Origin: Dehalococcoidia bacterium
GTDB lineage: Bacteria > Chloroflexota > Dehalococcoidia > Lucifugimonadales > UBA3495
Direction: 5' to 3'
Assembly (NCBI GenBank): GCA_965203975.1
Contig: CBDBDT010000001.1
Location: forward strand, 904,029-968,028
Length of the DNA stretch: 64,000 nucleotides
Shown here: positions 27,306 to 48,290 of the stretch, piece after piece
Layout of the letters: each line of letters begins with the position of its first letter
Position numbering within the stretch: position 1 is the stretch's first letter
The notes under the pieces: model-generated
What the model saw: only the letters and a program-made list of their open reading frames with translations
Databases searched by the model: none
What the model was told of the DNA's origin: nothing
Translations under genes and position numbers: made by a program

Positions 27306-27391
27306 TTCCCGTCATTCCCGCGCAGGCGGGAATCCAGACCCCCGTAAATCCCTCCCCTCAGGAACGGCAACCGAAGTAAGCGCCCTCCCTC
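27306..27391 (+). repeat. REP/MITE-like hairpin repeat, copy 1 (with downstream module)
   Basis: Core CCCGTCATTCCCGCGCAGGCGGGAATCCAGACCCCCGT at 27308-27345, with the hairpin at 27314-27333. It is followed by the module CCTCAGGAACGGCAACCG. Confidence 0.9.
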
Positions 27392-27394
27392 TCG

Positions 27395-28849
27395 TTACTC
27401 CCCGCGCGGGAACGGCCACCACCCCGGGTAGTCCCGCAGACGCAGGTGGCGGAAAAGTTCGGGATGGGTATCCACCGCGAGCTTCATCGCCTGCGAGACC
27501 GGTTCCCGGATAGCGTCGTGGGCCAGCTCCGACGTTCGCAGCTTGAAGAGATGGTAGCACTCCCTCAGGTTGACGTGGGCCAGTGCGCGGCGGTAGTGGG
27601 CGTGGGTCACCAGGTACTGGGCGGCGGTTGGGGATACTTCCTGCACCCGCCGGAAAGTCTGCTCCGCCCGTCCCAATGCGGACTCGAACACCGGGCTCAT
27701 TCCCGCATCGCGGATCAGGGATGGCAATCGGTATCCCAGGTCCACCGTGGCGGGTTGGGGGAGACAGGTCAGCATCCGGTGGCGCCTGAACTCGCGGAAT
27801 GCGCCGTAATCCAATGTGAACTCGAAGGTGTAGTGTACGGTCTCGAATTCGCGCCCGGGAAGATCGTGGGGCCCGATCCCTTCGACGCAGCGGTGGATTA
27901 TGTCATATCTCCGGGACTCGGGCATGGCCTGGACCGTTTGAAGCACGTCGTCGTAGCCGTTCCCTGAGTGGCGGTAAAGGAGGGCGGCGGCAAGTCTTTC
28001 CACCGCATCGGTATCCCACCCGACGAGCCGGGCCGGGATAACGGGAGCCGCCGCGCCACCTCCCGGGATAGCTTCCCCTTCCCCGGTCCCGGCCTCGGAA
28101 GCCAACTGCTTCTGCTGTGCTAAGACATCGGTGAGATAGGCGTTCTCGTCGGCGTATTTGATCAGCGTGGGAGTGACTGTGCGGGCCTGCTCGCGAATCT
28201 CCAATCCCAGGTCCCGTTCCTCGGCCAGTTCGGCGGACAGGAGCTTGGTGACTGCGTGTTCCAGGGTGCGGGCGTTGGCGGTGACTCCCACGTTCGTCAG
28301 CGTGGCGGCGGGCAGGACCTCCCGGCACTGGTCCGTGGCAAAGCGCCGCAGCCGCAGGCGATAGGCGGAATGGCGCTCCCCATCCCGCCGGGGATATTCC
28401 CCGGCCAGGTGGGCGATGCAACCGTCGAGCAGTTGTGAATAGGCCTGGAACAGGCGCCGGCAGGCGCTGTGGTACTGCTCCAGCAGCTGGGGGAAGGGTT
28501 CCAGTTCCCTGGGGGTGTGGTAGCTGCCGGCCGGCAGGACCTGGTACCGGGATGATTTCTCGGTGTAGGAGGCCAGACGGTTGTCCTCCAGGGCGTCGCA
28601 GGCCAGTCGGGAGACGTTCTCCACGGCCAAATGCACAACCGCGTGCTCGGCGACGGAGGCATGGCCGTATCCCAGGACCCATCGCTCGTGGAAGTCGGCG
28701 GCGCGTTCCCGGCTGACCTGCTCCGCTATCTCGTCGAAGGATTCCGGGCTGCGCGAGGTCATTGCGAAGACGACCGCGATCTGCTCCTCGGTCAGATCGT
28801 GGGCGTCGAGGGGGTACACCCGGCGGCTGAGGGCGTGTTCAGTGTCCAC
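27395..28849 (-). CDS. thyX: FAD-dependent thymidylate synthase, tandem two-domain ThyX
   Basis: 484 aa, about twice the usual ThyX length. The first half has TEKSSRYQ and the second half has FREFRRHRMLT. Confidence 0.7.
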   Translation of the reverse strand: MDTEHALSRRVYPLDAHDLTEEQIAVVFAMTSRSPESFDEIAEQVSRERAADFHERWVLGYGHASVAEHAVVHLAVENVSRLACDALEDNRLASYTEKSSRYQVLPAGSYHTPRELEPFPQLLEQYHSACRRLFQAYSQLLDGCIAHLAGEYPRRDGERHSAYRLRLRRFATDQCREVLPAATLTNVGVTANARTLEHAVTKLLSAELAEERDLGLEIREQARTVTPTLIKYADENAYLTDVLAQQKQLASEAGTGEGEAIPGGGAAAPVIPARLVGWDTDAVERLAAALLYRHSGNGYDDVLQTVQAMPESRRYDIIHRCVEGIGPHDLPGREFETVHYTFEFTLDYGAFREFRRHRMLTCLPQPATVDLGYRLPSLIRDAGMSPVFESALGRAEQTFRRVQEVSPTAAQYLVTHAHYRRALAHVNLRECYHLFKLRTSELAHDAIREPVSQAMKLAVDTHPELFRHLRLRDYPGWWPFPRGE

Positions 28850-28918
28850 CCGGTTTATTGTCGCCGGGAATCCAAAGATGCGCCAAGGAAAATTATCTCC
28901 TAGTTGGAGATTTCTGGT

Positions 28919-29704
28919 TCACGGCTTGCGGCAAACCAGCATGGCCCAGCGGTGCCGGAACATTAGCTGCCCGTCTTCCAGATACGGATACATCCCGGTT
29001 TCGGGGCCGCCCGATAGCTCGGATTGTAAATGCCGCAGGATCAGGGCCCGAGATTCGTCGGGGGTCTGGGTCATGTCCATCCAGCTCTCAACGCTGCGTT
29101 GGGCCTCGAAGGCGGAGGTGCGGGCGATTTCCAGGCCGCATTCCTCGGCCATGGCGCGGAGGCGGCTGACGGGCAAGGCGTTGGTGTGGGAGGGGTCCCG
29201 AAGACGTTCCAGGCGGTTGTGAGCCTCGGCGGTGGCGGGGTCTTCGGAGGTGGTGAGGTCAATGATGGCGACGTGCCCGCCGGAACGACAGACGCGAACC
29301 ATTTCCCGCAGGCACATGCCGGGGTTTTCGACCTGGTGCATGGCCAGGCGGCATGCCACCAGCGAGAAGCTCTCGTCTTCGTAAGGCAGACTGCGGGCAT
29401 CGCCCAGGTCGAAGGTGACGTTGGTCAACCCCTCTTCGGCGGCCAGTTGGCCGCCCCGGGCCACCATCTTTGGGGTCACGTCGACGGCAACGGCCTGGGC
29501 AACCATCGGGGCCATTCCCCGGGCCAGGACCCCGGTGCCGGCGGCCACGTCCAAAACCCGCATATCCGGGCGCAACTCCAGGTTCTCCAGACTCCATGCA
29601 AGGGCATGTTCGTTGCCGCCGGATACGACATAGGCATCCCAGTTAGCAGCCTGCTGGGAGAACTGTTCCTGAATCAGCTCGTCGTGGGTCCTTTCCTGAG
29701 ACAT
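28919..29704 (-). CDS. Class I SAM-dependent methyltransferase
   Basis: VLDVAAGTGVLARGMA motif I. Methyltransf_11-like. Confidence 0.8.
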   Translation of the reverse strand: MSQERTHDELIQEQFSQQAANWDAYVVSGGNEHALAWSLENLELRPDMRVLDVAAGTGVLARGMAPMVAQAVAVDVTPKMVARGGQLAAEEGLTNVTFDLGDARSLPYEDESFSLVACRLAMHQVENPGMCLREMVRVCRSGGHVAIIDLTTSEDPATAEAHNRLERLRDPSHTNALPVSRLRAMAEECGLEIARTSAFEAQRSVESWMDMTQTPDESRALILRHLQSELSGGPETGMYPYLEDGQLMFRHRWAMLVCRKP

Positions 29705-29758
29705 TCCCTGCCTTTACCCCCTGGCTTTCCGGCGAGGCGCGGGCCGCCCTGCTTGCGG

Positions 29759-31396
29759 CTAGACCAGCGCCCCGAATCCGTTGGGAATCTCCACCTCTAT
29801 CAACTGCACCCGGTCTGCACGCACCGCCTGTTCCAGTGCCTTCGACAGACCATCTACCGTGGACACTCGGGTGCCGGGGACTCCGTAGGAGTCGAAGAGC
29901 TTGATGAAATCCGGGTTCACCAGGTCTGTGCCCATCAGGCGGTCGCTGAATCGGGCGCTCTGGTATCCCTTGAGGACTCCCCAGGCGTTGTCGTTGAAAA
30001 TGACGATTACGGGGTTGATGCCGTACTGAACGGCGGTCCCCAACTCCTGGGCGTTGTACTGGAATCCACCGTCGCCGGTGATGCAGACCACCGGACACTC
30101 GGGTTTGCCAACCTTGGCGCCCAGCGCGGAGGGAAAGCCAAACCCCAATCCGGCCCAACCCCAGGGATACATGAACTGGCGGGGCTGGTCGATGGTCAGG
30201 CAGCGGGCCGCGCGGCTGGCCGGGACAGTTGCGTCCAGGGTGAAAATGGTGTTGTCGGGTGTGGCCGCACGGATCGCTTCGAAGGTGCGTAGTTCGTTGG
30301 CCCACGTATCCTGGAGGGCCTGGTATTGCTGTCCTTTCAGAGCGGCGACCTCCTGCCGGTACTCCGCCGAGCTTTCCACGTCACTGCTTCCGATACCCTG
30401 CAGCAGCTGGGAGACGACGGCCCGGGAATTGGCCGTGATGGAAACCGTCGCCGGATAGTTCTTGCCGATGTATTCCCCGTCCAGGAGGATGTGGACCAGG
30501 TTATCCGGCAGCTTCAAGTCCACGCCAACGGTGGAGCGGTAGGCCAGGGCGGAACCGAGAACCAGCGCGGCATCACACGAGCCCAGCCAGTCCTGTGCCG
30601 GATTTTCTCCCCAGATGCGGCGGCCCAGCGCGGGCCCCAGGGACAGGGGGTGGCTTTCCGGGAAGGCCCCCTTGGCCCCGTCCGTGGTGACCACCGCCGC
30701 TCCCAGCTTTTCCGCCAGTTCGATGACCTCGGCCGCGCCGCCCTGGGACTGGACCTCCTCGCCGACCACGATGACCGGGCGTTTCGCGTTGAGCATGACC
30801 TGGAGGGCCCGCTCGACCATCGTGGGATCACCCTGGGGGATGTCAGGCTCCCGGGGGCGCAGAATCTCCACCTCGGCCTTCTCTCCCAGCATATCGGTGG
30901 GCACTTCCAGCTCGATGGGCCGGGGACGGCGCTCCTGGAAGCGGCGGAAGGCTTCGACGAAATGATCCGGGATAGCCTCCACCTCGCCGATCATGGCGTT
31001 CCAGTCGGTGACGGCGCGGAACATCCCCAGCTGGTCCTTGGTCTCGTGGGTCGCCAGCTTGTTGCTGCCGACGAATTCCCGCTCAACGTTGGTGGTCACC
31101 TGCAGGATGGACGAGCTGGAGAAATAGGCTTCCCCCATTGCGCCCATGGAGTCAGCGGCCCCGGGGCCGGTGCTGGTCAGCAGAACCCCCGGCTTGCCCG
31201 TGGCCCGGGAGTAGCCGTCCGCCATGTACCCGCACCCCAGCTCCAGCCGGCCTCCGATGAAGCGGAGCGAGTCCTGGTTGTCGAAGAGAGCGTCAAAGAG
31301 GTCCAGGGTATGGACCGAAATTATCCCGAATATCGTGTCAACATCCTGGGCCTTCAGCGATTCGGCGATGGTCTGTCCACCGGTCATCATGGGCAT
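29759..31396 (-). CDS. Thiamine-diphosphate-dependent enzyme (acetolactate synthase-like)
   Basis: ThDP motif ITGDGGFQYNAQELGTAVQYGINPVIVIFNDNAWG. 545 aa. Confidence 0.85.
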   Translation of the reverse strand: MPMMTGGQTIAESLKAQDVDTIFGIISVHTLDLFDALFDNQDSLRFIGGRLELGCGYMADGYSRATGKPGVLLTSTGPGAADSMGAMGEAYFSSSSILQVTTNVEREFVGSNKLATHETKDQLGMFRAVTDWNAMIGEVEAIPDHFVEAFRRFQERRPRPIELEVPTDMLGEKAEVEILRPREPDIPQGDPTMVERALQVMLNAKRPVIVVGEEVQSQGGAAEVIELAEKLGAAVVTTDGAKGAFPESHPLSLGPALGRRIWGENPAQDWLGSCDAALVLGSALAYRSTVGVDLKLPDNLVHILLDGEYIGKNYPATVSITANSRAVVSQLLQGIGSSDVESSAEYRQEVAALKGQQYQALQDTWANELRTFEAIRAATPDNTIFTLDATVPASRAARCLTIDQPRQFMYPWGWAGLGFGFPSALGAKVGKPECPVVCITGDGGFQYNAQELGTAVQYGINPVIVIFNDNAWGVLKGYQSARFSDRLMGTDLVNPDFIKLFDSYGVPGTRVSTVDGLSKALEQAVRADRVQLIEVEIPNGFGALV

Positions 31397-31464
31397 GGGG
31401 TCTCTCCTTCCGTGGTAAGTGGGCCGACGGGTCTAAGAGGGTGCGTGAGAAATACCCATTTGCC

Positions 31465-31504
31465 CTCCCGTCATTCCCGCGCAGGCGGGAATCCAGACCC
31501 CCGT
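31465..31504 (+). repeat. REP/MITE-like hairpin repeat, copy 2
   Basis: Core at 31467-31504, identical to copy 1. Confidence 0.9.
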
Positions 31505-31575
31505 CGCCCACATCCCTCCACCTGTGTACCCTGTTGCAGTGCCTCTTGATATAGTTTCCAAATAGTCCGGCGGGT

Positions 31576-32985
31576 CTAAAGCAGCAACGTCACCGGGTTT
31601 TCCAGGACGCGCTTCACTTCCATGAGGAACTGGGCGGCCTCCGCGCCGTCCGCGACCCGGTGGTCGGTGGACAGCGTCGCCTTCATCATCTGGCCCACGG
31701 CGAGTTGTCCGTCGCGGACCACGGGCTGCTCCTTGACCGAACCTACGGCAAGAACGGCAGCGTGGGGCGGGTAGATGATGGCCGCAAAGCTCTCCACATC
31801 GAACATTCCCAGGTTGCTGACGCTGAAGGTGGTGCTGCTGTATTCGTCATTGCGGAGGTGGCCGCTGTGGGCCCGCTGGATGAGGTCCTTGCTGGCGGCG
31901 GCCAACTCCACCAGGCTCTTTTCCTGGCAGTTGGCAATGCCGGGGACCATCAGTCCCGCTTCCAGGGCAATGGCGATTCCGATGTTGACCTGGGGGTGAA
32001 ATTCCAAAGCCCCGTCGGAGAAGGAAGCGTTGAACTTGGGATGCCGCCCCAGGGCCAGGGCGCACGCCCTGACGATAAGGTCGTTGACTGTAACCCGGGA
32101 GTCGGATTCAACGGCGTCGTTGATTTCCTGGCGAAGGGCCATGGCCCTTCCCATGTCAATCTCGGCGGTCACATAGAAGTGGGGCGCTTCCCGCTTCGAG
32201 TCCGAGGTCACCCGGGCGATGGCCTGGCGCATCCGCGAAAGGTCTACCCGCTCTGCGGCCTCGGCCGGAACGGCCACCGCACCGCCGTCTGGACCGGAGG
32301 GCGCTTCCGATACCGGGGTTGGAGCGGGAGGACGGTATTCCAGCAAGTCCTTCTCGACGATGCGTCCACCGGGACCGGTCCCGCTCACTTCCGACAGGTC
32401 AATGCCCCGTTCTCGGGCCAGACGTCGGGCAATGGGCGATGCGCGGACCCCGGCCGGGGGTTCCGCCGGAAGGGCGGGCGGCTGGTATTCCAGAACGTCC
32501 CTTTCCACAATCCGCCCACCTGGACCGGTGCCGTTTACATCCCCCAGGTCAATTCCCCGTTCCCGGGCCAGGCGGCGGGCTATGGGTGATGCCCGCAGGC
32601 GGCCCTCATCGGCTGTCCCGGTGTCGGAAGTCCCAGTATCGGAAGGGGAAGCTGCTGGCTGGGAGGACCGGGCCGGTCCTCCCGCTGAATCGGCCGGGGC
32701 TGCATCGGGAGGCGAGGCTGGAAGGTCATCTTCCGGGAGGGCCTCGCCGGGAGCCGTGATGATGGCGATGAGTTCACCCACCGGGACCACCATCCCCTCA
32801 GCGGCGACTATCCTGCCTACAACCCCGCCGGTATAGGCCTCGAACTCGACGGTGGCCTTGTCCGTCTCGATATCGGCCAGGACTTCGCCCCGGGCGACGG
32901 TCTCGCCTTCCTTCTTGTGCCAGCGGACCACGGTGCCTTCCCGCATGTCGTAGCCCATCTGGGGCATCACTATGCTTGTCGCCAA
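31576..32985 (-). CDS. Dihydrolipoamide acyltransferase (E2) with one lipoyl and two E3-binding domains
   Basis: Lipoyl motif IETDKATVEF. The segment ASPIARRLARERGIDL..GTGPGGRIVE.D is duplicated. The catalytic DHRVADG motif is present. Confidence 0.9.
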   Translation of the reverse strand: MATSIVMPQMGYDMREGTVVRWHKKEGETVARGEVLADIETDKATVEFEAYTGGVVGRIVAAEGMVVPVGELIAIITAPGEALPEDDLPASPPDAAPADSAGGPARSSQPAASPSDTGTSDTGTADEGRLRASPIARRLARERGIDLGDVNGTGPGGRIVERDVLEYQPPALPAEPPAGVRASPIARRLARERGIDLSEVSGTGPGGRIVEKDLLEYRPPAPTPVSEAPSGPDGGAVAVPAEAAERVDLSRMRQAIARVTSDSKREAPHFYVTAEIDMGRAMALRQEINDAVESDSRVTVNDLIVRACALALGRHPKFNASFSDGALEFHPQVNIGIAIALEAGLMVPGIANCQEKSLVELAAASKDLIQRAHSGHLRNDEYSSTTFSVSNLGMFDVESFAAIIYPPHAAVLAVGSVKEQPVVRDGQLAVGQMMKATLSTDHRVADGAEAAQFLMEVKRVLENPVTLLL

Positions 32986-33073
32986 GACGGCCTCCCTGCA
33001 AAGAATTCCGGCGTCAAAGTCCGGTGATCATCCAATGGTCAAACGCAGGAGGGGTGTCCGTGTCTGCTGGAGT

Positions 33074-34459
33074 CTATCCATGAATCGCCCTTCCCTCGGC
33101 GCCCAACGCCGCTTCCTTGAGCATTTCCGAGATGGAAGGGTGGGCATGGACCGCCCAGCCCAGTTCCAGGGAAGTGCCCTCCAGGAGTCGGGTCAGGGAC
33201 AGCTCCCCCAGCAGCTCGGTGACTTCCGGGCCAATGAGATGAGCGCCCAGCAGCTCGCCATATCGCGCATCCATGACCAGCTTGACCAAGCCCTCCGTCT
33301 CCCCCATTGCCATGGCCTTGCCGTTGGCGAGGGCGTTCATCTTTCCGACCTTCACCTCGTGGCCCTGGGCCACGGCCTGTTCCTCGGTCAGACCGAAGCT
33401 GGCCACCTGCGGCTGGCAATACGTCGCCTTGGGCATGTAGGTGTAGTCCAGGGGCTCGGTTTCCTCACCGGCAATCGCTTCGGCGGCGGTGACCGCCTGG
33501 GCCGATGCGGCATGGGCGAGGGCCAGCTTTCCGGTGACGTCTCCTATGGCGAACACCCCGGGAACGTTGGTGGTCATGCGGTCGTCAATGCTTATGTAAC
33601 CCCGCTCGGTGGCGACGCCGATGCGGTCCAGCCCCAAGCCTTCGGTGTTGGCCTGAATGCCGACGGCCACCAGCACCTTTCCGGCTTCGATGGTGTGCTC
33701 AACTCCATTCTGATCAACGGTGACGGAAACCCCGCCGGCGGTGGGAACCACGCCTGAAACGCCGGCGCCGGTCATGACGTTGATGCCGTGTCGGGAAAAG
33801 GAACGCTCCAACTGCTGGCTGATTTCCTCATCCTCGTTGGGGACAAGGCGGGGCAGAAGCTCGACCACGGTGACATCCACGCCATACATCCGGTACACGT
33901 AGGCGAACTCGACGCCGATGGCGCCTCCCCCCACGATAACCATGGACCCGGGAAGGTCCCGGAGGACGATGCTCTCCCGGCTGGTTATGACCCGGTCCCC
34001 ATCCACCGGCAGGGATGGAATGCTGCGGGGACGGGCTCCGGTGGCGATGATGATGTTCTTCCCGTTGAGCCGGTCGCCCTGGGGAGATACTTCAACGACT
34101 CCGGGGGAAACGATGGATGCCTCTCCGGCGATGTGGTCAATGTTGTTCTTGCGGAGGAGATAGGCAACGCCCCGGACGTTGCGGTCCACCACCCTCCTGC
34201 TGCGGTCAATGGCGGCGGAAAAGTCGGCGTGAAAGTTGTCGAACCTCAGCCCGAACTCGTCCGCCCGGCGCACGTAGGAAACTATCTCAGCGTTCTTCAG
34301 CAGCGCCTTGCTGGGAATGCACCCCCAGTTGAGGCAAACCCCTCCTAGGGCATCCCGTTCGACGATGGCAGCCTTCATCCCCAGTTGAGCGCAGCGGATG
34401 GCAGACACGTACCCGCCGGGGCCCGCGCCAATCACCACCACGTCGTAGTCGTTAGCCAT
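33074..34459 (-). CDS. lpdA: Dihydrolipoyl dehydrogenase (E3)
   Basis: Start at ATG 34459. YDVVVIGAGPGGY and the redox centre GGVCLNWGCIPSK. Confidence 0.9.
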   Translation of the reverse strand: MANDYDVVVIGAGPGGYVSAIRCAQLGMKAAIVERDALGGVCLNWGCIPSKALLKNAEIVSYVRRADEFGLRFDNFHADFSAAIDRSRRVVDRNVRGVAYLLRKNNIDHIAGEASIVSPGVVEVSPQGDRLNGKNIIIATGARPRSIPSLPVDGDRVITSRESIVLRDLPGSMVIVGGGAIGVEFAYVYRMYGVDVTVVELLPRLVPNEDEEISQQLERSFSRHGINVMTGAGVSGVVPTAGGVSVTVDQNGVEHTIEAGKVLVAVGIQANTEGLGLDRIGVATERGYISIDDRMTTNVPGVFAIGDVTGKLALAHAASAQAVTAAEAIAGEETEPLDYTYMPKATYCQPQVASFGLTEEQAVAQGHEVKVGKMNALANGKAMAMGETEGLVKLVMDARYGELLGAHLIGPEVTELLGELSLTRLLEGTSLELGWAVHAHPSISEMLKEAALGAEGRAIHG

Positions 34460-34685
34460 TTGCACCAGCGGTTTTAGACATATGAAGTCAGAGGTAATTC
34501 CAGCCGTTTCGGTGCCGACAAAGACCACTACTGTCGGGGAAGGCTGGGCCAACCAATTATACCGGCCACCCTACCGGCGGGCAACGAAGCCGGTTGAAAC
34601 TTCCCTTTCCGGAGCGGCCCTGGTTTGTCCCGAGCCGGGGGTTCTGGTATCATTTACCCCTACCAAGCCGAACCACGAGGTTGTA

Positions 34686-34901
34686 ATGAGACTAGGACCC
34701 TTGGGCCTGACCGAACTGCTGATCATCCTAGCGGTGCTGCTGTTGATCTTCGGGGCTACCCGCCTGCCCGAAATAGGTTCATCGCTGGGCAAGGGAATCA
34801 GGATGTTCAAGACCTCGGTGACCGGCGAAGACGAACCTGCCAAACCGCCCGAGAAGCAGGAAACGGCCAAGGCAAGGACCAACACCGACGACCGGCCATA
34901 G
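34686..34901 (+). CDS. tatA: Twin-arginine translocase TatA/E
   Basis: MRLGPLGLTELLIILAVLLLIFGATRLPEIGSSLGKGIRMFK. GAGG RBS. Confidence 0.85.
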   Translation: MRLGPLGLTELLIILAVLLLIFGATRLPEIGSSLGKGIRMFKTSVTGEDEPAKPPEKQETAKARTNTDDRP

Positions 34902-34942
34902 CCAGCAACAGTCCCATCTCCCGTAGGAAACGAGAGCAAACG

Positions 34943-34972
34943 AAAGGACCGGCGTTTGGGCCGGTCCTTTTT
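34943..34972. terminator. Bidirectional intrinsic terminator between tatA and tatC
   Basis: AAAGGACCGGC gttt GGGCCGGTCCTTTTT, with A-run and T-run on the two sides. Confidence 0.7.
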
Positions 34973-35021
34973 CATTCCCTGTCAGCCCGCTCCGCGGAAT
35001 CCCCAGCTGGAGGAAATGTCC

Positions 35022-35789: not shown

Positions 35790-36043
35790 CGTGTGTCGGG
35801 TCCAGGAGGGTCTTCCCTGGGGCCCGGTCCGGTGGGATTGGGGGGGCCGGGTCGGCGGTCATCCCCAGGTCGGCGGTCATCCAGTGATGCCGCTTCGGTT
35901 ATGTCGCCAACGGTCCGGCGGATTTCGCGCCACACCTTCCCGGTGGTGCGGGCCATTTCCATCGTTCTGGCCGGGCCCAGCACGAGGAATCCCACAACCA
36001 TTATCAGGGCGATTTCGGGAAGGCCGACGCCGAACAGGTTCAC
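35786..36043 (-). CDS. TatA/TatB-family protein
   Basis: MNLFGVGLPEIALIMVVGFLVLGPARTMEMAR. It has 4-nt overlaps with both neighbours. Confidence 0.8.
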   Translation of the reverse strand: MNLFGVGLPEIALIMVVGFLVLGPARTMEMARTTGKVWREIRRTVGDITEAASLDDRRPGDDRRPGPPNPTGPGPREDPPGPDTR

Positions 36044-38032: not shown

Positions 38033-38072
38033 TTCCCGTCATTCCCGCGCAGGCGGGAATCCAGACCCCGGT
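38033..38072 (+). repeat. REP/MITE-like hairpin repeat, copy 3 (with left arm AAGTCTGATTCGATCCTTTCA from 38008)
   Basis: Core at 38035-38072. Confidence 0.9.
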
Positions 38073-38598: not shown

Positions 38599-38621
38599 CC
38601 TCCTGCTCCCGCGGTTTTCGG

Positions 38622-38718
38622 GGGAGTGGATGGGGCCCGGTGGCTCTTGCGGTCTTCAAAACCGTTATGCCTCGTGAAGAGCGGGGTAGGTGGGTTCGAC
38701 TCCCTCGCACTCCCGCCA
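38622..38718 (+). tRNA. selC: tRNA-Sec (anticodon UCA)
   Basis: Hand-folded. The acceptor is GGGAGTG/CACTCCC plus GCCA. The D-stem is 6 bp with the 4-nt loop CGGT. The anticodon loop is CTTCAAA with TCA at 38656-38658. The variable arm has a 7-bp stem. The T-loop is GGGTTCGACTCCC. One mismatch each is tolerated in the T stem and the 8th acceptor pair. Confidence 0.85.
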
Positions 38719-38734
38719 ACCGGCAACTGGACCG

Positions 38735-38766: not shown

Positions 38767-38874
38767 CCCGCAGGGACAGCAGCGGATGAAAATTGAAGGC
38801 CCCAAGCTCTCCCCTGCTAGATTCTCGAAAACGTCACGCCGTCACCACAGGCGAAACAAAAGGAGTTCAAGCAA

Positions 38875-39063: not shown

Positions 39064-39229
39064 AACCGGAAGAACAACCGTCCCCGCCACAACGCGGAGC
39101 AAAAAGGAGCCGGACTGGCGCACAGTCCGGCTCCTCCCCATTCTCTTGATTATGACCTGGTGACTATCTCAAAACCATTCACCGTCCTCCCATCCACCCC
39201 GCGCAGAGCCTGCCCCGCCTTCCTTCTCT

Positions 39230-39320
39230 CCCGTCATTCCCGCGCAGGCGGGAATCCAGACCCCGGTAATACCTCCCCTTCAGGAACGGCAACCAGAGCA
39301 AACCCTCCCTCCCGTCACCC
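39230..39320 (+). repeat. REP/MITE-like repeat, copy 4 (91-bp unit)
   Basis: Core at 39230-39267 plus the CCTTCAGGAACGGCAACCAGAGCAAACCC module. It is near-identical to 39426-39515. Confidence 0.9.
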
Positions 39321-39355
39321 CTCCCCAGGGATGGTAACCAGAGCAAGCCCCCTCT

Positions 39356-39388
39356 CCCGTCGTCCCTGCGGAGGCAGGGACCCATCAG
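39356..39388 (+). repeat. REP-like repeat, copy 5, compensatory-variant hairpin
   Basis: CCCGTCGTCCCTGCGGAGGCAGGGACCCATCAG, with the hairpin TCCCTGC ggag GCAGGGA at 39363-39380. Confidence 0.85.
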
Positions 39389-39425
39389 CCTTCCCCCAAC
39401 CCTGTCTCCCGCACCCAGCACCCTT

Positions 39426-39515
39426 CCCGTCATTCCCGCGCAGGCGGGAATCCAGACCCCGGTAATACCTCCCCTTCAGGAACGGCAACCGGAGCAAACC
39501 TCCCTCCCGTCACCC
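39426..39515 (+). repeat. REP/MITE-like repeat, copy 6 (second copy of the ~91-bp unit, 90 bp here)
   Basis: Core at 39426-39463. It differs from copy 4 by one substitution and one 1-nt deletion. Confidence 0.9.
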
Positions 39516-39584
39516 CCATACAAAACCAGCCCCCACGAAGGCGGGGGCTGGAATACGGGGACACGATGACTCTCACCCACCCTC

Positions 39585-41222: not shown

Positions 41223-41444
41223 AAGCGACCTACCTGCAATTCCTGATTGGACGGCAACGGATCATTTCAGCCGTTCCGTCCACGTTAATCCGGCGGCACC
41301 CCTCAGGGTGGCGCCCAATGGGATACTAACGCCCGCCCCCGCAAAAGGCAAGGGAGTCCTGGCCTCGGGCGAATCCCTCCGGTTGCCTCTATCCGGTGTC
41401 TCTGATACGCTACGCCGAGCCATCCCCCTCTGAAAGATTGTCGA

Positions 41445-42188
41445 TTGTCTTCTCCCTCCGGCGTCAGCGCCTCCCTTTTCGTCACCTGCATCATCGACCA
41501 GTTGTACCCGGACGTAGGGGTCAGCACGGTGCGGCTCCTGCGGAGTCTTGGGGTGGAGGTGGACTTTCCCCGGGATCAGACCTGCTGCGGCCAGCCCCTC
41601 TTCAACTCCGGCTTTGCCAGCGACGCCCGGAAACTGGCCGTGCGGGTCCTGAACCAGTTCGCGGACAGCCAATACGTGGTGGTGCCCTCCGGCTCCTGCG
41701 CCGCCATGCTGCGGGTCTTCTATCCCGAGTTGTTCGATGATGACCCGGAACAACACAACCGTGCCCTGGAACTGGCCTCGAGAGTATACGAGCTTTCCGA
41801 GTTTGTGACGGGCGTATTGGGAGTGACCAGCCTCGGAGCCGCGGGCGCCGGCGCCGTTACCTACCACCCCAGCTGCCACCTTTCCCGTGAGCTGGGCGCG
41901 GGAGACGCCGCCGAGCGGTTGCTCGCCGGGGTCGAAGGCTTGAACGTCGTCTCCCTGCCCGGCAGGGAGACCTGCTGCGGTTTCGGAGGCACCTTCTCCG
42001 TCAAGTATCCCCACATCTCCGAGGGTATGCTGGAAGACAAGATCGGCAACATAGCATCCACCGGAGCGGACACCCTGGTCGCCTGTGACATGAGCTGCCT
42101 GATGCACATCGGCGGCGGTCTGTCGCGCCAGGGTCATCGCGTAACGGTGAAACACCTTGCCCAGATCCTGGACCCGGGAGCCTCCTGA
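41445..42188 (+). CDS. lutA: Lactate utilisation protein A ((Fe-S)-binding, CCG domains)
   Basis: LFVTCIIDQLYPDVG...DQTCCGQP and a second ETCCGFGGTF. Confidence 0.85.
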   Translation: MSSPSGVSASLFVTCIIDQLYPDVGVSTVRLLRSLGVEVDFPRDQTCCGQPLFNSGFASDARKLAVRVLNQFADSQYVVVPSGSCAAMLRVFYPELFDDDPEQHNRALELASRVYELSEFVTGVLGVTSLGAAGAGAVTYHPSCHLSRELGAGDAAERLLAGVEGLNVVSLPGRETCCGFGGTFSVKYPHISEGMLEDKIGNIASTGADTLVACDMSCLMHIGGGLSRQGHRVTVKHLAQILDPGAS

Positions 42189-43657
42189 TGCCCGCGGTCC
42201 AGACCCGGGACTTCATCCCCGCCTCTTCCATATCCATCCGCGACCCCCAGCTCCGGCGGGCGCTGCAAAGGGTAGGCGCTGGCTTCGACGGGGCCCGGCG
42301 GGAAGCCATCGAGGAAGTTTCCCCCGAGGCGTGGGAGGCGTGGCGCGAAGAGGCCCGGGCCGTCAAGGCCCACACCCTCGACCACCTGGACTATTACCTG
42401 GAAATGCTGGCCCGCAACGTGGAACGCAACGGAGGGCAGGTCCACTTCGCCGTTGACGCCGCCGAGGCCAACACCATAGTCTCCAACATCGTCCAGTCCC
42501 GCGGCGTCCAGGTGGTGACCAAAGGCAAGTCAATGGTGTCCGAGGAGCTGGACCTCAACCACGTCCTCGAAGCAGCCGGAGTCGAGGTCTACGAAACCGA
42601 CCTGGGCGAGTACATCATCCAATTGGCGGGAGAAACGCCCTCCCACCTCGTCGCGCCGGCCCTCCACAAGACCAAGGAGCAGGTGGCCCAGCTCTTCGCC
42701 GCCAAGCTGGGCGTCCCCTACAATGACGACATTGAGGAAATGGCCCGGGTGGCCAGGGTCGCCCTGCGGGACAAATTCCTGGCGGCGGACATGGGGATAA
42801 GCGGCGCCAACTTCCTTATCGCCGACACCGGCAGCCTCGTCATCATCACCAACGAAGGGAACGGCCGCCTCTGTACCTCCGCGCCCCGCATCCATGTCGG
42901 CATCGCCGGGATGGAGAAGGTTATCCCCTCGCTGGAAAATCTGGCCCTGTTCCTCAGACTGCTGCCCCGGTCGGCAACGGGGCAGCGGATTACTAGCTAC
43001 CTCAGCATGGTTAGCGGACCGCGCCGGGAGGCGGACGAGGATGGCCCGGAGGAGTTCCACCTCGTCATCGTGGACAACGGCCGTTCGCGCCTGCTGGCCG
43101 ACCCCAAGCTGCGGGAAGCCCTGTACTGCATCCGTTGCGGCGCCTGCCTCAATATATGCCCCGTTTACCAGAAGGTCGGAGGACACGCCTACGGCTGGGT
43201 CTACCCCGGTCCCATCGGCTCCATAGTGACCCCTGAGTTGGTGGGTCTGAAGGAGGCCAAAGACCTCCCCTTCGCTTCCAGTCTCTGCGGCGCCTGTCGC
43301 GAGGCATGTCCGGTTAAAATCAACATCCCTCGGATGCTGCTCCACCTGCGGGAGCAATTGAAGGAGAGTCCGGCCCCGGAAGTGCGCTCGGCAACCCGCC
43401 GGGAGCGCCTTCTTGCCCGGGGATTCACCGCAGTTATGTCCCGCCCCGCCCTTCTTGCGCTGGGCAGGAAAACCGCCCGGGTGTTGCAGGTTCCCTTCGC
43501 CAAGGGCGGTAAGATAGCCCGCGCTCCATTGCCGCCTTTCTCCCGCTGGAGCCGGTCCCGGGACCTGCCGGCTATTCCGGCCCGGAGCTTTCGCGACATC
43601 TGGGATCGGGAACTTTCCGACCCCCGACCTTCCAATCCCCGGCGGAACGGCCGTTAG
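42188..43657 (+). CDS. lutB: Lactate utilisation protein B (4Fe-4S ferredoxin-type)
   Basis: CIRCGACLNICPVY and CGACREACPV. TGATG overlap with lutA. Confidence 0.9.
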   Translation: MPAVQTRDFIPASSISIRDPQLRRALQRVGAGFDGARREAIEEVSPEAWEAWREEARAVKAHTLDHLDYYLEMLARNVERNGGQVHFAVDAAEANTIVSNIVQSRGVQVVTKGKSMVSEELDLNHVLEAAGVEVYETDLGEYIIQLAGETPSHLVAPALHKTKEQVAQLFAAKLGVPYNDDIEEMARVARVALRDKFLAADMGISGANFLIADTGSLVIITNEGNGRLCTSAPRIHVGIAGMEKVIPSLENLALFLRLLPRSATGQRITSYLSMVSGPRREADEDGPEEFHLVIVDNGRSRLLADPKLREALYCIRCGACLNICPVYQKVGGHAYGWVYPGPIGSIVTPELVGLKEAKDLPFASSLCGACREACPVKINIPRMLLHLREQLKESPAPEVRSATRRERLLARGFTAVMSRPALLALGRKTARVLQVPFAKGGKIARAPLPPFSRWSRSRDLPAIPARSFRDIWDRELSDPRPSNPRRNGR

Positions 43658-43658
43658 C

Positions 43659-44423
43659 GTGGCGCAATACCCGGGAACCTCCCAGTCGGATTTCATCGCC
43701 TCCGTCCGGCGGGCTCTGGGTCGGCCGGGTCTCGACGCGGTTGAGCCCCTTTCCACCCGCGCCGGGGACGGTCTTGAGGAACTGGAAGCTCGGGCGGTTG
43801 ACCTCAATCATAGATTGAAGGAATCCCGGGGCGAGCTGGTTTCCCTGCTGGCGGAGACGGCCGCCTTGCGGGGCTGGCACGTCCACCGGGTGAGCCAAGG
43901 CGAGGCCGCAGTGGGCGTCGTGGTGGATGTTGCCCGTTCTGTGGACGCGCAACGGATCGCCCGCTCAGGCCAGGATGTTTTCTCCGAGATTCCGGTGGAC
44001 GATGCGTTGGGAAACGCTGGCCTCCGGGTAGCCGCAGCCGTCATGGGGGACGACCGGGGCCGGGACGAAGTGCGGCAGGATATCATCCGCGCGGATATGG
44101 GCGTCACCGGGGTTGATTACGCCGTGGCCGAGACCGGATCGGTGGTAGTGGTGCCCCGGGCCGGCTTGAGCCGGCTGGTTTCGCTCGTGCCGCCGGTGCA
44201 CGTTGCGCTGGTCCGACCCCGGGACGTGGTCGAATCCTTGGATGACGTTTTCCTGCTGCGGCGTCTGGAATACTTCCAGAAAGGCGGCGATATGGGCAGC
44301 TATCTCAACTTCATCACCGGCCCCAGCCGCACCGCCGATATCGAGCAGACCATCGTAATCGGCGTCCACGGGCCCAAAGAAGTCCACATGGTGTTGCTGG
44401 ACGAGCACTCACATGAAGTCTGA
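43659..44423 (+). CDS. lutC: Lactate utilisation protein C (LUD domain)
   Basis: GVTGVDYAVAETGSVVV...SRTADIEQTIVIGVHGP. Confidence 0.85.
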   Translation: MAQYPGTSQSDFIASVRRALGRPGLDAVEPLSTRAGDGLEELEARAVDLNHRLKESRGELVSLLAETAALRGWHVHRVSQGEAAVGVVVDVARSVDAQRIARSGQDVFSEIPVDDALGNAGLRVAAAVMGDDRGRDEVRQDIIRADMGVTGVDYAVAETGSVVVVPRAGLSRLVSLVPPVHVALVRPRDVVESLDDVFLLRRLEYFQKGGDMGSYLNFITGPSRTADIEQTIVIGVHGPKEVHMVLLDEHSHEV

Positions 44424-44560
44424 CCCAATCCTTTCACCTCTCTTCCCGTCATTCCCGCGCCCTCTCCCGTCATTCCCGCGCAGGCGGGAATCCAGACCCC
44501 CGTCGTCTGTTCCCCACAGTATCATGTTGACCGTTAACTGCCAGTTTGACCAAACTGACA
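44415..44560 (+). repeat. Extended MITE-like element, copy 7 (left arm, partially duplicated hairpin core, right arm)
   Basis: Left arm GAAGTCTGACCCAATCCTTTCACC. Half-core at 44445-44460 and full core at 44466-44503. The right arm GTCTGTTCCCCACAGTATCATGTTGACCGTTAACTGCCAGTTTGACC is shared with 48143-48290. Confidence 0.85.
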
Positions 44561-44601
44561 CTCGAGCCATTGACCTTGTACTGCTGGACGAGGAGTAAAA
44601 G

Positions 44602-44943
44602 ATGCCGGTGCGTATCGGGTTCACCGAGTTCCGAAAGCGTATGCTGGAGCAGGAGCTTCAGAACATCGAGCAGTTGCTGCCCACGCTGGGGGTGGAAAAA
44701 GTCATTCTTACCGGGGACATGGTAACTGAGGAATACACCCCCGAGAGCAAGATACAGTTGATCGCCGTCCACGACACGGACCGTCCCTTCGGGCGTCGGG
44801 AGGACTTCTTCTTCTACCACCTGGGCAGCATGGTTCATGTGGAGACCCTGGTGTACACCCCGGACGAGTTCGAACGGTTGCAGGATGAGTTGCCGGCCCT
44901 CAACGCAGCGTGCCGGAAAGGACGCGTGTTATTTAATGCCTGA
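44602..44943 (+). CDS. Nucleotidyltransferase-domain protein (MNT-type antitoxin-like)
   Basis: 113 aa with a [32 protein letters not shown] is a degenerate GS-x-DxD region. It overlaps the downstream HEPN gene by 8 nt. Confidence 0.65.
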
Positions 44944-45337
44944 TCACGAAACCGAGGGCGCCCGCTGGCTGCGTCAAGCCATCCAGGACCTCGACGACGC
45001 CGATTTCAACCGGGAAGGCAACAGGTTCAACGTGGCCTGTTTCTTGGGACATCAGGCAGCGGAGAAAGCCGTCAAAGCGTACCTGTACCACCGGGGAGCC
45101 GAAGACGTCTGGGGCCATTCCCTGAACGACCTGTGCGAAGACGCCAAGATATTCGAGATGTTCTTCGACACGGTCAAAAGCGAGGCCCGCCAGCTGGACA
45201 AGTATTACGAAATAACCCGCTATCCCGGCTTCCTACCCGGCGGAATCCCCTCCGAGGCCTTCGACCGGGACGACGCGGACCGCTCCATCGAACTATCCCA
45301 AATAGTCGTCGACTTCGTCCGGGAGCGCGTCGTCTAG
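44936..45337 (+). CDS. HEPN-domain protein
   Basis: [15 protein letters not shown]...[18 protein letters not shown]...[11 protein letters not shown] is typical of HEPN (PF05168-like). Confidence 0.8.
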
Positions 45338-45489
45338 CAAACCACCACCCAACTCCCTTCCCCCTTGACCAGGAAAGAGCCTGCCCCGCGTAGTCGGGGG
45401 TTAGGATGGGGGTGATGCCTCTCCCCCTTTTACCTTTGCCACCCTGCCATCACCCCCACGCATCCATTTCTCCCGCACCCAACACCTCT

Positions 45490-45526
45490 CCCGTCATCCC
45501 GCGCAGGCGGGAATCCAGACCCCCGT
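45490..45526 (+). repeat. REP-like repeat, copy 8 (1-nt deletion in 5' stem arm)
   Basis: CCCGTCATCCCGCGCAGGCGGGAATCCAGACCCCCGT. Confidence 0.85.
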
Positions 45527-45539
45527 TAACCCGCTCCCT

Positions 45540-45830
45540 TCAACAAACGTCAGGAAACAGGTCATCCCACCCCGGATTCGACAATTCGATTACCCGAATC
45601 TTCCAACCCCGGCGCCACTTCTTCAACGCCTTCTCCCGGCCTATTGCCTGCTCCATCGTCTCATGGAACTCGTACCACACCAGGTTGTCCACCCTGAACC
45701 GTCCGGTAAAGCCGGGGGTCGACCCGCTCCGGTGCTTCCAGACCCTTTCCGCCAGGTTCGACGTCACCCCAACGTAAAGGGTTCCGTTGCGGCCGCTGGC
45801 CAGCATGTAGACGGCGGGATTCTTGCGCAT
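45540..45830 (-). CDS. GIY-YIG nuclease-family protein
   Basis: Start at ATG 45830. AVYMLASGRNGTLYVGVTSNLAERVWKH...REKALKKW. Confidence 0.8.
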   Translation of the reverse strand: MRKNPAVYMLASGRNGTLYVGVTSNLAERVWKHRSGSTPGFTGRFRVDNLVWYEFHETMEQAIGREKALKKWRRGWKIRVIELSNPGWDDLFPDVC

Positions 45831-45963
45831 CAAGGTCCTTTTGTCCAACCGGGTGACCACAATTGGAGTAGCCAGGATGATGTTAACGGTGTGGGTCAGT
45901 CGCCACAACCGGCAAATGTCATCGAAAACCCGGCAAACCCTCTCTCCCTTCACCCCCATGCAG

Positions 45964-46000
45964 AGCCTGCCCCGCGCGGGAGGGGGCCCAGACCCCCCGT
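45964..46000 (+). repeat. Degenerate REP-like unit (different hairpin, same CCAGACCCCCCGT tail)
   Basis: AGCCTGCCCCGCGCGGGAGGGGGCCCAGACCCCCCGT. The AGAGCCTGCCCCGC module also occurs at 39205 and 45374. Confidence 0.6.
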
Positions 46001-46042
46001 AAATCCTTCCCCCCAACCCTGTCTCCCGCACCCACCACCTCT

Positions 46043-46080
46043 CCCGTCATTCCCGTGCAGGCGGGAATCCAGACCCCCGT
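46043..46080 (+). repeat. REP-like repeat, copy 9 (C to T change giving a G-U-compatible pair)
   Basis: CCCGTCATTCCCGTGCAGGCGGGAATCCAGACCCCCGT. Confidence 0.9.
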
Positions 46081-46121
46081 AAACCCTCCCCCGGGGACGG
46101 GAATCCTCACTCAACACCCGT

Positions 46122-46568
46122 CTACCGGGAAAACAGCTCCGACAGCTTCTCCTGCCGGTAGGCGAAGATCCTCCGCAAGTCCGGGGCCACCAGCAAGTTC
46201 CTGACGATGGCTCCCCCGATGACGGCATACTCGACGTGGTCACCGGCGATGGTTCCACTTCCCGATTCTGCGAAGGTATGCACGTGGCGCCAGAACCGGT
46301 ACGGGCCGCGCCGCTGTTCGTCCACGAACAACTCGGGCGGCTCCCACTCGGTGATCTCGCTCTGCCACCGCAGGGGAATCCCCCGCAGCTTGAGCCGGTA
46401 ATCAATTATCGTCCCCGCCCTCATGGTGATGGGCGGCGGAGTCACCACGCGAAACTCCAGCAGAGGCGGCGTGATGATTTCCAGGTTGAATGCGTCGGTG
46501 AAAAACGGGAAGACCTCTTCCCTGGGAAGCGGTAGCCACTGCTCAGTTTCCAGCGTCCATATCTTCAT
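46122..46568 (-). CDS. SRPBCC-family (START/cyclase-dehydrase fold) protein
   Basis: 148 aa. LPLPREEVFPFFTDAFNLEIITPP...RGPYRFWRHVHTF. Confidence 0.7.
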   Translation of the reverse strand: MKIWTLETEQWLPLPREEVFPFFTDAFNLEIITPPLLEFRVVTPPPITMRAGTIIDYRLKLRGIPLRWQSEITEWEPPELFVDEQRRGPYRFWRHVHTFAESGSGTIAGDHVEYAVIGGAIVRNLLVAPDLRRIFAYRQEKLSELFSR

Positions 46569-46702
46569 TATCGCGAAAACGATTGTCCCCGAAAGGCGGA
46601 CAAAGAGAATGAGCCAAGGTCATCGGATGAATCCTGACTCAAATCTTTCACCAATCCCCCTTCACCCTCCCCTCAAAGACGGCAACCGCAGCAAACCCTC
46701 TC

Positions 46703-46740
46703 CCCGTCGTCCCTGCGGAGGCAGGGACCCAGACCCCCGT
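46703..46740 (+). repeat. REP-like repeat, copy 10, compensatory-variant hairpin
   Basis: CCCGTCGTCCCTGCGGAGGCAGGGACCCAGACCCCCGT, with the hairpin at 46710-46727. Confidence 0.9.
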
Positions 46741-46833
46741 AAATCTTTCCCTCAGGAACGGCAACCGGATCAAACCCACTCTCCCGTCCTTCCCACACCT
46801 CCCCTCAGGAACGTCCCCTCCGCCTACCCTTAT

Positions 46834-46871
46834 TCCGTCATTCCCGCGCAGGCGGGAATCCAGGCCCCCGT
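46834..46871 (+). repeat. REP-like repeat, copy 11
   Basis: TCCGTCATTCCCGCGCAGGCGGGAATCCAGGCCCCCGT. Confidence 0.9.
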
Positions 46872-46939
46872 CGCCTCTCCCCGTAGGAATGGCAACCGAG
46901 GCAAAGCCAACCTCTCTGCAACCCCTCTACCGCCCAAAT

Positions 46940-48088
46940 CTACGAGCTGGCTGTCCGCCCGGTGGCTCCGATCAGCCGGATGGTCCGCTCTGCGGCACCC
47001 TGGAGAAGCTCCCCGGTCCGCGCCAGGCTGCGGTCAAAGCTCATGGGACGGTCGGCGATGCACACAATTCCCGCCACCCCGTGGTCATAGAGGGCCTGGT
47101 GGCCGGGTCCCAGGCTTCCTGCCAGGATTACGGTCGGAACGCCCTTGGCGCGAGCGCGTTGAGCAACCCCGACCGGGGCCTTGTTGTAGATGGTGGACTC
47201 ATCGGCCCGGCCTTCGCCGGTAATCACGAGATCGGCGCCTTCCAGGTGCCGGTCGAACTCCAGGACTTCGCACACCATTTCGATCCCTGAACGCAGGTCA
47301 GCGCCTGCGAAGGCCATCAGCCCGGCGCCCAGCCCGCCTGCCGCCCCCGAGCCTGGAGTGTCCAGAACGTCGATTCCAACATCGCGTCTCACGACTCGGG
47401 CAAAGTTGCTCAAAGCCTCGTCCAACTCTGCAACAACCTTGGCTGAGGCGCCCTTCTGCGGCCCGTAGATGGCGGACGCTCCTTCCGGGCCGCACAGGGG
47501 GTTGGTGACATCGGTGGCGCCGATGATGGCCGCCTCTTCCAACCCCTGGTGAAGGCCGCTAACGTCGATGCGGTCCAGGCGGGATAGTGCTGCGCCCCCC
47601 GGCGGAAGCTGCTGCCCCCTTCGGTCCAGGAACTTTGCTCCGAGAGCGGAGGCCATGCCTGCCCCGCCATCGTTGGTTGCGCTGCCGCCCAGGCCGACGA
47701 TAATGCGGGTGAACCCCTTGTCCAGCGCCTCTCGGATGATTTCCCCGGTGCCCCGGGTGGTGGCGGTCCGGGGGTTGCGGCGTTTGGGCGGCACCAGGGC
47801 CAGCCCGGACGGACGGGCCATTTCCACGACGGCGGTTTGCCCGTCTCCCATTACTCCCCAGAGGGCCTCCACCGCCTGGCCCAGGGGGCCGGTAACGATG
47901 CTGCGGAATATCTGCCCGCCGGTCGCGTTTACTAGGGCTTCCAGCGTGCCGTCGCCGCCGTCTGCCACCGGGACCAGAACGGTCTCTGCGGTCGGGTCCG
48001 CGTCCAGAACGCCGCGCTGGATGGCTTCCGCAGCGTCCAGCGCATAGAGACTGCCTTTGAAACTTTGGGGCGCGATAACGACTTTCAT
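46940..48088 (-). CDS. glxK: Glycerate kinase
   Basis: MKVVIAPQSFKGSL...VPVADGGDGT...GLGGSATNDGGAGM...VITGEG. Confidence 0.85.
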   Translation of the reverse strand: MKVVIAPQSFKGSLYALDAAEAIQRGVLDADPTAETVLVPVADGGDGTLEALVNATGGQIFRSIVTGPLGQAVEALWGVMGDGQTAVVEMARPSGLALVPPKRRNPRTATTRGTGEIIREALDKGFTRIIVGLGGSATNDGGAGMASALGAKFLDRRGQQLPPGGAALSRLDRIDVSGLHQGLEEAAIIGATDVTNPLCGPEGASAIYGPQKGASAKVVAELDEALSNFARVVRRDVGIDVLDTPGSGAAGGLGAGLMAFAGADLRSGIEMVCEVLEFDRHLEGADLVITGEGRADESTIYNKAPVGVAQRARAKGVPTVILAGSLGPGHQALYDHGVAGIVCIADRPMSFDRSLARTGELLQGAAERTIRLIGATGRTASS

Positions 48089-48142
48089 GACTGCTGACAC
48101 CCATTATACAACGTACCCCGCCGACGCCCACCGCTATCGCTT

Positions 48143-48290
48143 GAAGTCTGACTCGATCCTTTCACCTTTCCTCCCGTCATTCCCGCGCAGGCGGGAATCC
48201 AGACCCCCGTTGTCGTTCCCCGCGGTATCGTGCTGTTCGTTCACTGGAAGTTTGACCCTATCAGTACTTATGCCGCAGACCTCATCTCGA
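48143..48290 (+). repeat. Extended MITE-like element, copy 12
   Basis: Left arm GAAGTCTGACTCGATCCTTTCACC and core at 48173-48210. The right arm is GTCGTTCCCCGCGGTATCGTGCTGTTCGTTCACTGGAAGTTTGACC. Confidence 0.85.

Follow-up and report, generated by a model that had tools for sequence, protein, structure and literature searches.

What are the short hairpin repeats that recur, always in one orientation, in a 64,000-nt stretch of a Dehalococcoidia genome (C1:904029-968028 of the assembly; hereafter the window, whose positions serve as coordinates unless a contig is named), and which enzyme, if any, recognizes them? Our analysis indicates that they are very probably Ssn-related motifs (SRM) of the Neisseria Transformation Sequence (NTS) type, with the gene for their cognate nuclease lying inside the cluster, a reading to which inferences on selfish behavior and on orientation are attached.

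Hairpin repeats of the NTS type and the nuclease gene among them

The NTS is a 28-nt sequence, CGTCATTCCCGCGMAVGCGGGAATCYRG, that contains dRS3 (Chenal et al., Nat Commun 2025, PMC11893778). Its nuclease SsnA, a 94-aa single-domain GIY-YIG protein, binds and cuts the NTS as single-stranded DNA only and on one strand only; binding requires the C directly after the palindrome, and cutting, which in Ssn motifs occurs a few bases upstream of CGTC, requires the three bases that precede the palindrome (PMC11893778). Homologues of ssnA in many bacteria are flanked by NTS-like motifs, for which the name SRM was introduced (PMC11893778). The core of the window repeats, CGTCATTCCCGCGCAGGCGGGAATCCAG, equals the NTS letter for letter, and its palindrome is the dRS3 unit ATTCCC-N8-GGGAAT. 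Exact matches to the NTS number 8 in the window and 83 in the genome, with 0 in a reversed-sequence control; the window copies lacking one are two with a variant stem (class B, defined below) and two altered copies of the canonical class A (45490 and 46043). The published SRM pattern HGTCWYN(0-2)YYVSBRHN(0-5)WNVSBRGN(0-2)RNCYNB is matched by 10 of the 12 window copies and by 159 sites across the genome, versus 32 in the control.

A window search allowing at most three mismatches placed the 20-nt palindrome ATTCCCGCGCAGGCGGGAAT at ten sites, every one on the plus strand, where shuffled sequence gave an expectation of 0.00 matches. Eight of these are mismatch-free (27314, 31473, 38041, 39236, 39432, 44472, 46840 and 48179), the one at 46049 carries a single C-to-T mismatch that still allows a G-T pair, and the one at 45495 has a 5' arm shortened by a 1-nt deletion. 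The variant palindrome GTCCCTGCGGAGGCAGGGAC lies at 39362 and 46709. Searching the whole window with a sequence-only profile, nhmmer recovered 12 copies and a half copy at 44445-44464, with none in 1-27 kb or 48.3-64 kb. Minus-strand copies were absent from the window both by nhmmer and by the loop-blind pattern ATTCCC-N8-GGGAAT, which was run because the reverse complement of the palindrome differs from it in the loop only. This inventory reproduces that of the initial annotation, made from the letters and open reading frames (ORFs) of the window, once the 6-nt CCCGTC leader is counted: the twelve copies and the half copy, their uniform plus orientation, the two empty flanks, the pair-preserving change in copy 46043 and the spurious minus-strand ORFs reading ...GFPPARE or ...LDSRLRGNDG are all present.

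A genome-wide Pfam search for GIY-YIG domains returned, besides UvrC, a match at C1:949628-949843, a second gene at C2:2027 kb and a broken copy at C1:1083 kb. The first corresponds to window positions 45600-45815 on the minus strand and falls within a 96-aa gene that we term ssn-1 (45540..45830, minus strand; ATG at 45830, stop at 45540-45542; product P0001). PF01541 covers residues 6-77 of the product (E 6e-15), a single-domain protein of <150 aa with no second domain. Its Y8, Y19 and E66 are spaced as Y6, Y17 and E64, the catalytic residues of N. meningitidis SsnA (PMC11893778), in a comparison of positions with the text of that paper, the proteins being unaligned. One NTS copy begins 14 nt past the ssn-1 stop (47 nt to its palindrome) and the other lies ~175 nt upstream of the start, the distances to the two ends of the matched coding stretch being 47 and 219 nt. 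These bounding copies, at 45490..45526 (plus strand; 1-nt deletion in the 5' arm; past the stop) and 46043..46080 (plus strand; class A with the C-to-T change in the 5' arm that leaves a G-T wobble; upstream of the gene), delimit an NTS-ssn-NTS cassette (45486..46096, minus strand) made up of the gene, a conserved ~115-nt leader and the two repeats, a layout that matches the architecture published for the Ssn family.

The cassette recurs in inverted orientation at C1:1083140-1083769, where a frameshift and a TAG codon mark its decay; homology between the two units extends as far as the NTS copies and no further, and this decayed copy is likewise flanked by NTS of class A. The second gene, ssn-2 (C2:2027 kb), is 58% identical to ssn-1 and has class B hairpins on both sides, one of them with an inverted loop and unaltered flanks. 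Judged from sequence, the window gene is probably the cognate Ssn-family (cd10448) nuclease of the surrounding repeats; it had been overlooked when the cluster was first described. Adjoining the cassette, at 44602-45337 on the plus strand, a small ORF with no Pfam match runs into the beginning of a gene with a HEPN domain (PF05168, E 3e-26), a pair that resembles nucleotidyltransferase-HEPN toxin-antitoxin systems.

The closest relatives of the ssn-1 protein come from Dehalococcoidia metagenome-assembled genomes (MAGs; 97% and 82% identity), followed by proteins of Alpha- and Gammaproteobacteria and others at 60-67%. Homologues are present in 79 of 251 sampled Dehalococcoidia genomes (58 of 164 genera), often several per genome and most of them with hairpins alongside. 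Across many phyla, 60 of 110 homologous ssn loci have a CGTC-hairpin-C motif no more than 250 nt away on each side of the gene; among these doubly flanked loci, 36 have the repeats as inverted pairs, an arrangement like that of insertion sequences, and 11 have both repeats antisense to the gene, as in the window. The stems flanking ssn vary by lineage with the helix retained. One further Dehalococcoidia genome (G014), assembled into many short contigs, contains 17 ssn matches, many with in-frame stops, which suggests that the cassette multiplied in a burst and that the copies later decayed.

The remaining copies of the window, all on the plus strand, occupy varied surroundings. Class A copies with the structure CCCGTC-ATTCCCGC-GCAG-GCGGGAAT-CCAGACCCCCGT lie at 27308..27345 between convergent genes, at 31467..31504 between two minus-strand genes (encoding a thiamine pyrophosphate enzyme and a 2-oxoacid dehydrogenase E2), and at 38035..38072 between divergent genes, the last bearing the left arm of a 152-nt element resembling a miniature inverted-repeat transposable element (MITE). 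A mosaic array at 39230..39515 combines class A copies at 39230 and 39426 with a class B copy at 39356; each of the two class A copies comes with a CTCAGGAACGGCAACC module, and together they form a direct duplication of ~91 nt. A selenocysteine tRNA gene (Rfam RF01852, 67.4 bits; 38622-38714, plus strand) lies just upstream of this array. The half copy (44445..44464), consisting of the 5' flank and 5' arm only, sits immediately upstream of the full class A copy at 44466..44503, which lies within a ~145-nt MITE-like composite (44415-44560). Further right lie a class B copy with the structure CCCGTC-GTCCCTGC-GGAG-GCAGGGAC-CCAGACCCCCGT (46703..46740) and a class A copy (46834..46871), and a last class A copy (48173..48210) is enclosed in a ~148-nt MITE-like composite (48143-48290).

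Stem classes, composite elements and competing explanations

To place the window copies in their genomic setting, we surveyed the full assembly (4.17 Mb, 62.5% GC, two contigs, C1 and C2) with a pairing-blind profile, which gave 238 matches; 165 of these form seven or more of the eight stem pairs, and ~70 are partial. Class A, defined by ATTCCCGC/GCGGGAAT arms and a GCAG loop, accounts for 117 of the 165 copies, and class B, with GTYCCTGC/GCAGGRAC arms and a GGAG loop, for 33, the other 15 belonging to further classes such as ATTCCGGC/GCCGGAAT and GCCCCCGC/GCGGGGGC. An identical 32-nt core is found in 67 copies. The CCCGTC leader is common to classes A and B, and the CCAGACCCCCGT trailer is retained in one third of class B; since the two classes share their flanks, the variants belong to the family. 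The possibility that the variant stems form a separate family, which would have undone the initial description, failed for the same reason, the CCCGTC and CCAGAC flanks being common to variant and canonical copies. Copies with a T-G wobble (GTTCCTGC with GCAGGGAC) bridge the two forms of class B.

In a set of 56 distinct genome-wide sequences whose selection ignored pairing, 95.3% of the stem cells are paired, versus 20-57% in slid controls. Three pairs covary, as had been read from the window alone: pair 1 changes from A-T to G-C (20 sequences), pair 3 from T-A to C-G (8) and pair 6 from C-G to T-A (20), where the counts are of sequences rather than events and class B may trace to few founding changes. 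Folded as single-stranded DNA, the hairpins reach -8.5 to -9.5 kcal/mol. The covariation backs the earlier proposal that the structure is under selection, with the hairpin as a nucleic-acid target. By the gene calls made in this analysis, 121 of 127 copies are intergenic and 6 lie inside genes, with no preference for any gene arrangement (divergent 31, convergent 25, tandem 37 and 28). Some copies have the 4-nt loop inverted with both directional flanks intact (for example C2:2027595-2027618, and cores with the loops CTGC, CTCC and TTGC), as though a strand switch or an inversion of the hairpin loop had left its mark.

Many copies are embedded in larger units, among them two MITE-like elements; the side modules and the mosaic build, likened at first to bacterial interspersed mosaic elements (BIMEs), proved real. 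The CTCAGGAACGGCAACC module has 16 genomic copies, 8 of them at a fixed offset of ~+43 or -38 from the core, and GCAGAGCCTGCCCCGC has 40; a ~91-nt unit containing CTCAGGAACGGCAACC builds the arrays at 39230-39515 and 46703-46900. Flank clustering revealed a 152-nt element with terminal inverted repeats GGGCTATCGCATGA ... TCATGCGATAGCCC, present in 18 copies with both ends, to which the window copies 38035, 44466 and 48173 belong, some of them degraded. A second element of ~117 nt, with ends AACTATCTCAAAAC ... GTTTTGAGATAGTT, has 6 complete copies. Members of each of these two families enclose an NTS hairpin, and to neither family could a transposase be assigned. A related genome, G001, aligns with window positions 40.8-51 kb at ~90% nucleotide identity: the site of the 44466 element is occupied in both genomes, the 48143-48290 element is missing from its orthologous site in G001, and G001 has extra copies beside ssn. 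These shared and missing copies indicate that the repeats both persist across species and turn over.

The copy-free left third of the window had been taken to fit a foreign origin of that region. Stretches of 27 kb without a copy make up 58% of all such stretches in the genome, and the absence is therefore weightless by itself. Foreign origin nevertheless stands as plausible for part of the region: positions 1-16 kb have 55-57% GC and encode defence-type functions (an N6/N4 DNA methylase, a HerA-like ATPase, split Type ISP restriction fragments and DUF4238), and genome bins below 59% GC hold a copy in 0 of 19 cases, against ~7.5 expected. A recent arrival is plausible for this block and not for 16-27 kb, where GC is normal.

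Several other explanations of the repeats were weighed against the NTS reading. The initial annotation had framed them in the manner of repetitive extragenic palindromic (REP) and BIME-type elements, which would be mobilized by a REP-associated tyrosine transposase (RAYT), an IS200/IS605-like Y1 enzyme. Short intergenic hairpins, directional flanks, mosaic arrays and a strand-linked orientation all suit such elements, and the Ssn paper itself likens its system to REP/RAYT (PMC11893778); yet the motif is the NTS, the gene it brackets encodes a GIY-YIG nuclease, and the proposed search for a RAYT/IS200-type gene found no Y1_Tnp (PF01797) match in the genome, with control genomes positive and ~6% of the genome missing from the assembly, so that we give this account scarcely any credence. 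A role at the RNA level, as terminators, transcript stabilizers or small RNA genes, would draw on the stability, GC content and intergenic position of the hairpins. Here the stems lack a following T-run, copy orientation is independent of the flanking genes in all the arrangements counted above, the Rfam search that had been recommended matched the selenocysteine tRNA alone and none of the repeats, and SsnA does not bind RNA (PMC11893778), which makes such a role extremely improbable. It is also very unlikely that the repeats are attachment sites maintained as integration targets of IS110/Piv-type recombinases: dRS3 is a known recombinase target, used by filamentous prophages in Neisseria (PMC11893778, introduction), and the genome has nine IS110-family genes, but a single one of the nine has a copy within 1 kb, the distance being 9-70 kb for the rest. 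These nine sites include C2:983630, 1063795 and 1622811, and three of the genes appear identical.

Closer to the NTS reading is the idea that the genome holds two cognate pairs, with ssn-1 cutting class A (ATTCCCGC stems) and ssn-2 cutting class B (GTYCCTGC stems). In its favor, ssn-1 and the decayed cassette are flanked by class A and ssn-2 by class B on both sides, and an altered stem sequence abolishes SsnA activity even where the helix is retained (PMC11893778), stem sequence rather than helix alone being needed. We nonetheless regard it as doubtful, since single arrays mix classes A and B, other stems accompany the genes most closely related to ssn-2, and G001 contains 40 class B copies with an ssn-1 orthologue only. 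This last observation also weighs against the assignment of the whole family to NTS-type motifs with a cognate nuclease, as do the failure of class B to satisfy the SRM pattern at W, where a G follows CGTC, the lack of any NCBIfam model matching the nuclease and the weakness of its best matches among solved structures (PDB; UPF0213 GIY-YIG proteins, E 0.02). Mobility, of which the duplicated cassette and the differing occupancy of sites in G001 are signs, is in turn harder to argue from the 48143-48290 element, whose insertion boundaries are fuzzy and whose target duplication is unreadable at ~90% identity.

Copy orientation and GC skew

The uniform orientation emphasized in the initial annotation holds locally but not genome-wide, where 85 copies are on the plus and 80 on the minus strand. 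They are strongly clumped (26 runs versus 64 expected, z = -6.9): on contig C1, 29 of 36 copies are plus up to 952 kb and 22 of 23 are minus from 981 kb onward, the switch falling just to the right of the window cluster. Orientation follows the local GC skew, with r = -0.69 over all bases, -0.65 over genic positions and -0.60 at third codon positions, and r = -0.58 once the mean coding-strand effect is removed. Where |skew| exceeds 0.1, 87% of 95 copies follow the rule, which holds in class A (75%) and in class B (85%), while the correlation with AT skew is weak. In other words, the cleavable top strand, with CGTC on its 5' side, is the C-rich strand. Correlating orientation with GC skew had been suggested from the window alone; r comes to about -0.6, and when the skew landscape was shifted circularly 500 times, the observed value was never attained.

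Two simpler sources of this correlation were considered and rejected. Gene direction is not significantly correlated with copy orientation (r = -0.12), and the regional skew on the strand bearing the NTS top sequence is ~-0.15 whether the neighboring genes lie on the same or the opposite strand. The C-rich sequence of the elements themselves does not account for it either, the correlation persisting when only genic or third codon positions are used.

The same rule appears in two further genomes. In the complete Dehalococcoidia chromosome OZ241913.1 (G003), r is -0.64 (p 4e-7; 60 samples of 20 kb), and in G002, 17 of 20 clusters agree with the rule (r = -0.74). The OZ241913.1 chromosome carries 1,305 copies (533 plus, 772 minus), and its tandem arrays (C1:712853-713099 and elsewhere) have a 37-nt period composed of a 25-nt hairpin unit and a 12-nt spacer. 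Neither the Ssn paper nor the other literature searched mentions a strand, skew or replication bias for these repeats.

These results raise the possibility, which we put forward tentatively, that copy direction is set by DNA replication, the Ssn-cuttable strand being kept off the lagging-strand template. The cleavable strand would be tolerated on the C-rich strand, which, if the G-rich strand is the leading strand, would be the leading-strand template and rarely single-stranded; copies whose cleavable strand is exposed as lagging-strand template would disappear, as fits selection against self-cleavage at the fork. As an equivalent alternative, insertion itself may be tied to the fork in the manner of IS200/IS605, the enzyme being of the GIY-YIG type instead. 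If replication does set the direction, the nuclease would act on single-stranded DNA at the host's own fork and not on incoming DNA alone, and the chromosome would be a map of tolerated orientations.

A number of observations speak against this replication reading, which assumes that the G-rich strand is the leading one. At third codon positions, the skew of this genome and of OZ241913.1 is organized not into two replichores but into blocks of 50-300 kb that reach values of +/-0.45 and are interspersed with unskewed blocks, a pattern that frequent inversions between repeats may explain. The dnaA gene, at C2:1615 kb here and at 774 kb in OZ241913.1, marks a clean two-replichore switch in neither; a cluster of 7 copies to its left (C2:1550-1580 kb) breaks the skew rule, and other Dehalococcoidia have intermixed or paired copy orientations. 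The earlier suggestion that orientation may track replication is consequently borne out only in part, as far as local GC skew in three genomes goes. The patchy skew, the behavior of dnaA and the weak AT skew correlation would also suit an origin of the rule other than replication, in which the elements would enter a postulated C-rich target motif in one direction only, strand composition alone would determine the number of targets available on each strand, and segmental inversions would then move copies and skew together. The top-strand flanks are indeed very C-rich; the rule holds, however, in both stem classes and after coding-strand correction, and we consider this origin rather unlikely.

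Relation to known systems and biological meaning

Beyond the identical 28-nt motif, the window shares with the Neisseria NTS/SsnA system a CGTC on the 5' side and a C on the 3' side of an 8-bp stem with a 4-nt loop, copies that are clustered and nearly all intergenic, and a single-domain GIY-YIG nuclease of ~95 aa whose gene is bracketed by repeats. The two differ in their hosts, here a Dehalococcoidia (Chloroflexota) MAG of 62% GC and there a host-associated proteobacterium, and in their neighbors, which here are ordinary metabolic genes rather than surface proteins. Both copies flanking ssn are antisense to it here, whereas the inverted pair is the commonest arrangement among the homologous loci; the G-starting stem class lies outside the published SRM pattern; and orientation follows GC skew, on which the published account is silent. 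Natural transformation is not known for this organism, and the role described in Neisseria may accordingly not apply.

With REP/BIME elements and RAYT (TnpA-REP, of the IS200/IS605 superfamily), the system has in common hairpin repeats acting as single-stranded DNA, mosaic arrays, a strand-specific biology and a small cognate nuclease gene flanked by repeats; it differs in possessing a GIY-YIG nuclease in place of an HUH Y1 transposase, a RAYT gene being absent here. Neisseria intergenic mosaic elements (NIMEs), RS units bounded by dRS3, likewise form intergenic arrays that interleave ATTCCC-N8-GGGAAT units with modules 50-150 nt long, but the intervening modules here are of unrelated origin and include the two MITE-like elements (152 and ~117 nt) bounded by terminal inverted repeats.

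By analogy with Neisseria SsnA, the Dehalococcoidia Ssn would cut NTS sites in the same way, the predicted target of ssn-1 being the top strand carrying CCCGTCATTCCCGCGCAGGCGGGAATCCAGACC as single-stranded DNA. The system may be mainly a selfish element consisting of a nuclease and its site, of which the solo hairpins and the composites would be non-autonomous derivatives. The Ssn system as such was already published in 2025, and the Dehalococcoidia case adds an example to it; the strand rule may be the new part.

What the locus means for the family is, in the first place, that the Ssn/NTS system extends to free-living Dehalococcoidia, about one third of whose sampled genomes encode the nuclease, and that the Neisseria motif is preserved there without a changed letter. 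Because the G-starting stems fall outside the published pattern, published counts probably underestimate the family. The nesting of hairpins in MITE-like elements, the duplication of the cassette and the variation among species are all relevant to how such repeats multiply, and the orientation rule, seen in three genomes, offers a testable hint of the place at which the enzyme encounters single-stranded DNA inside its own cell. Controlling natural transformation, the role described so far for a host-associated pathogen, probably does not account for everything that the system does in Dehalococcoidia.

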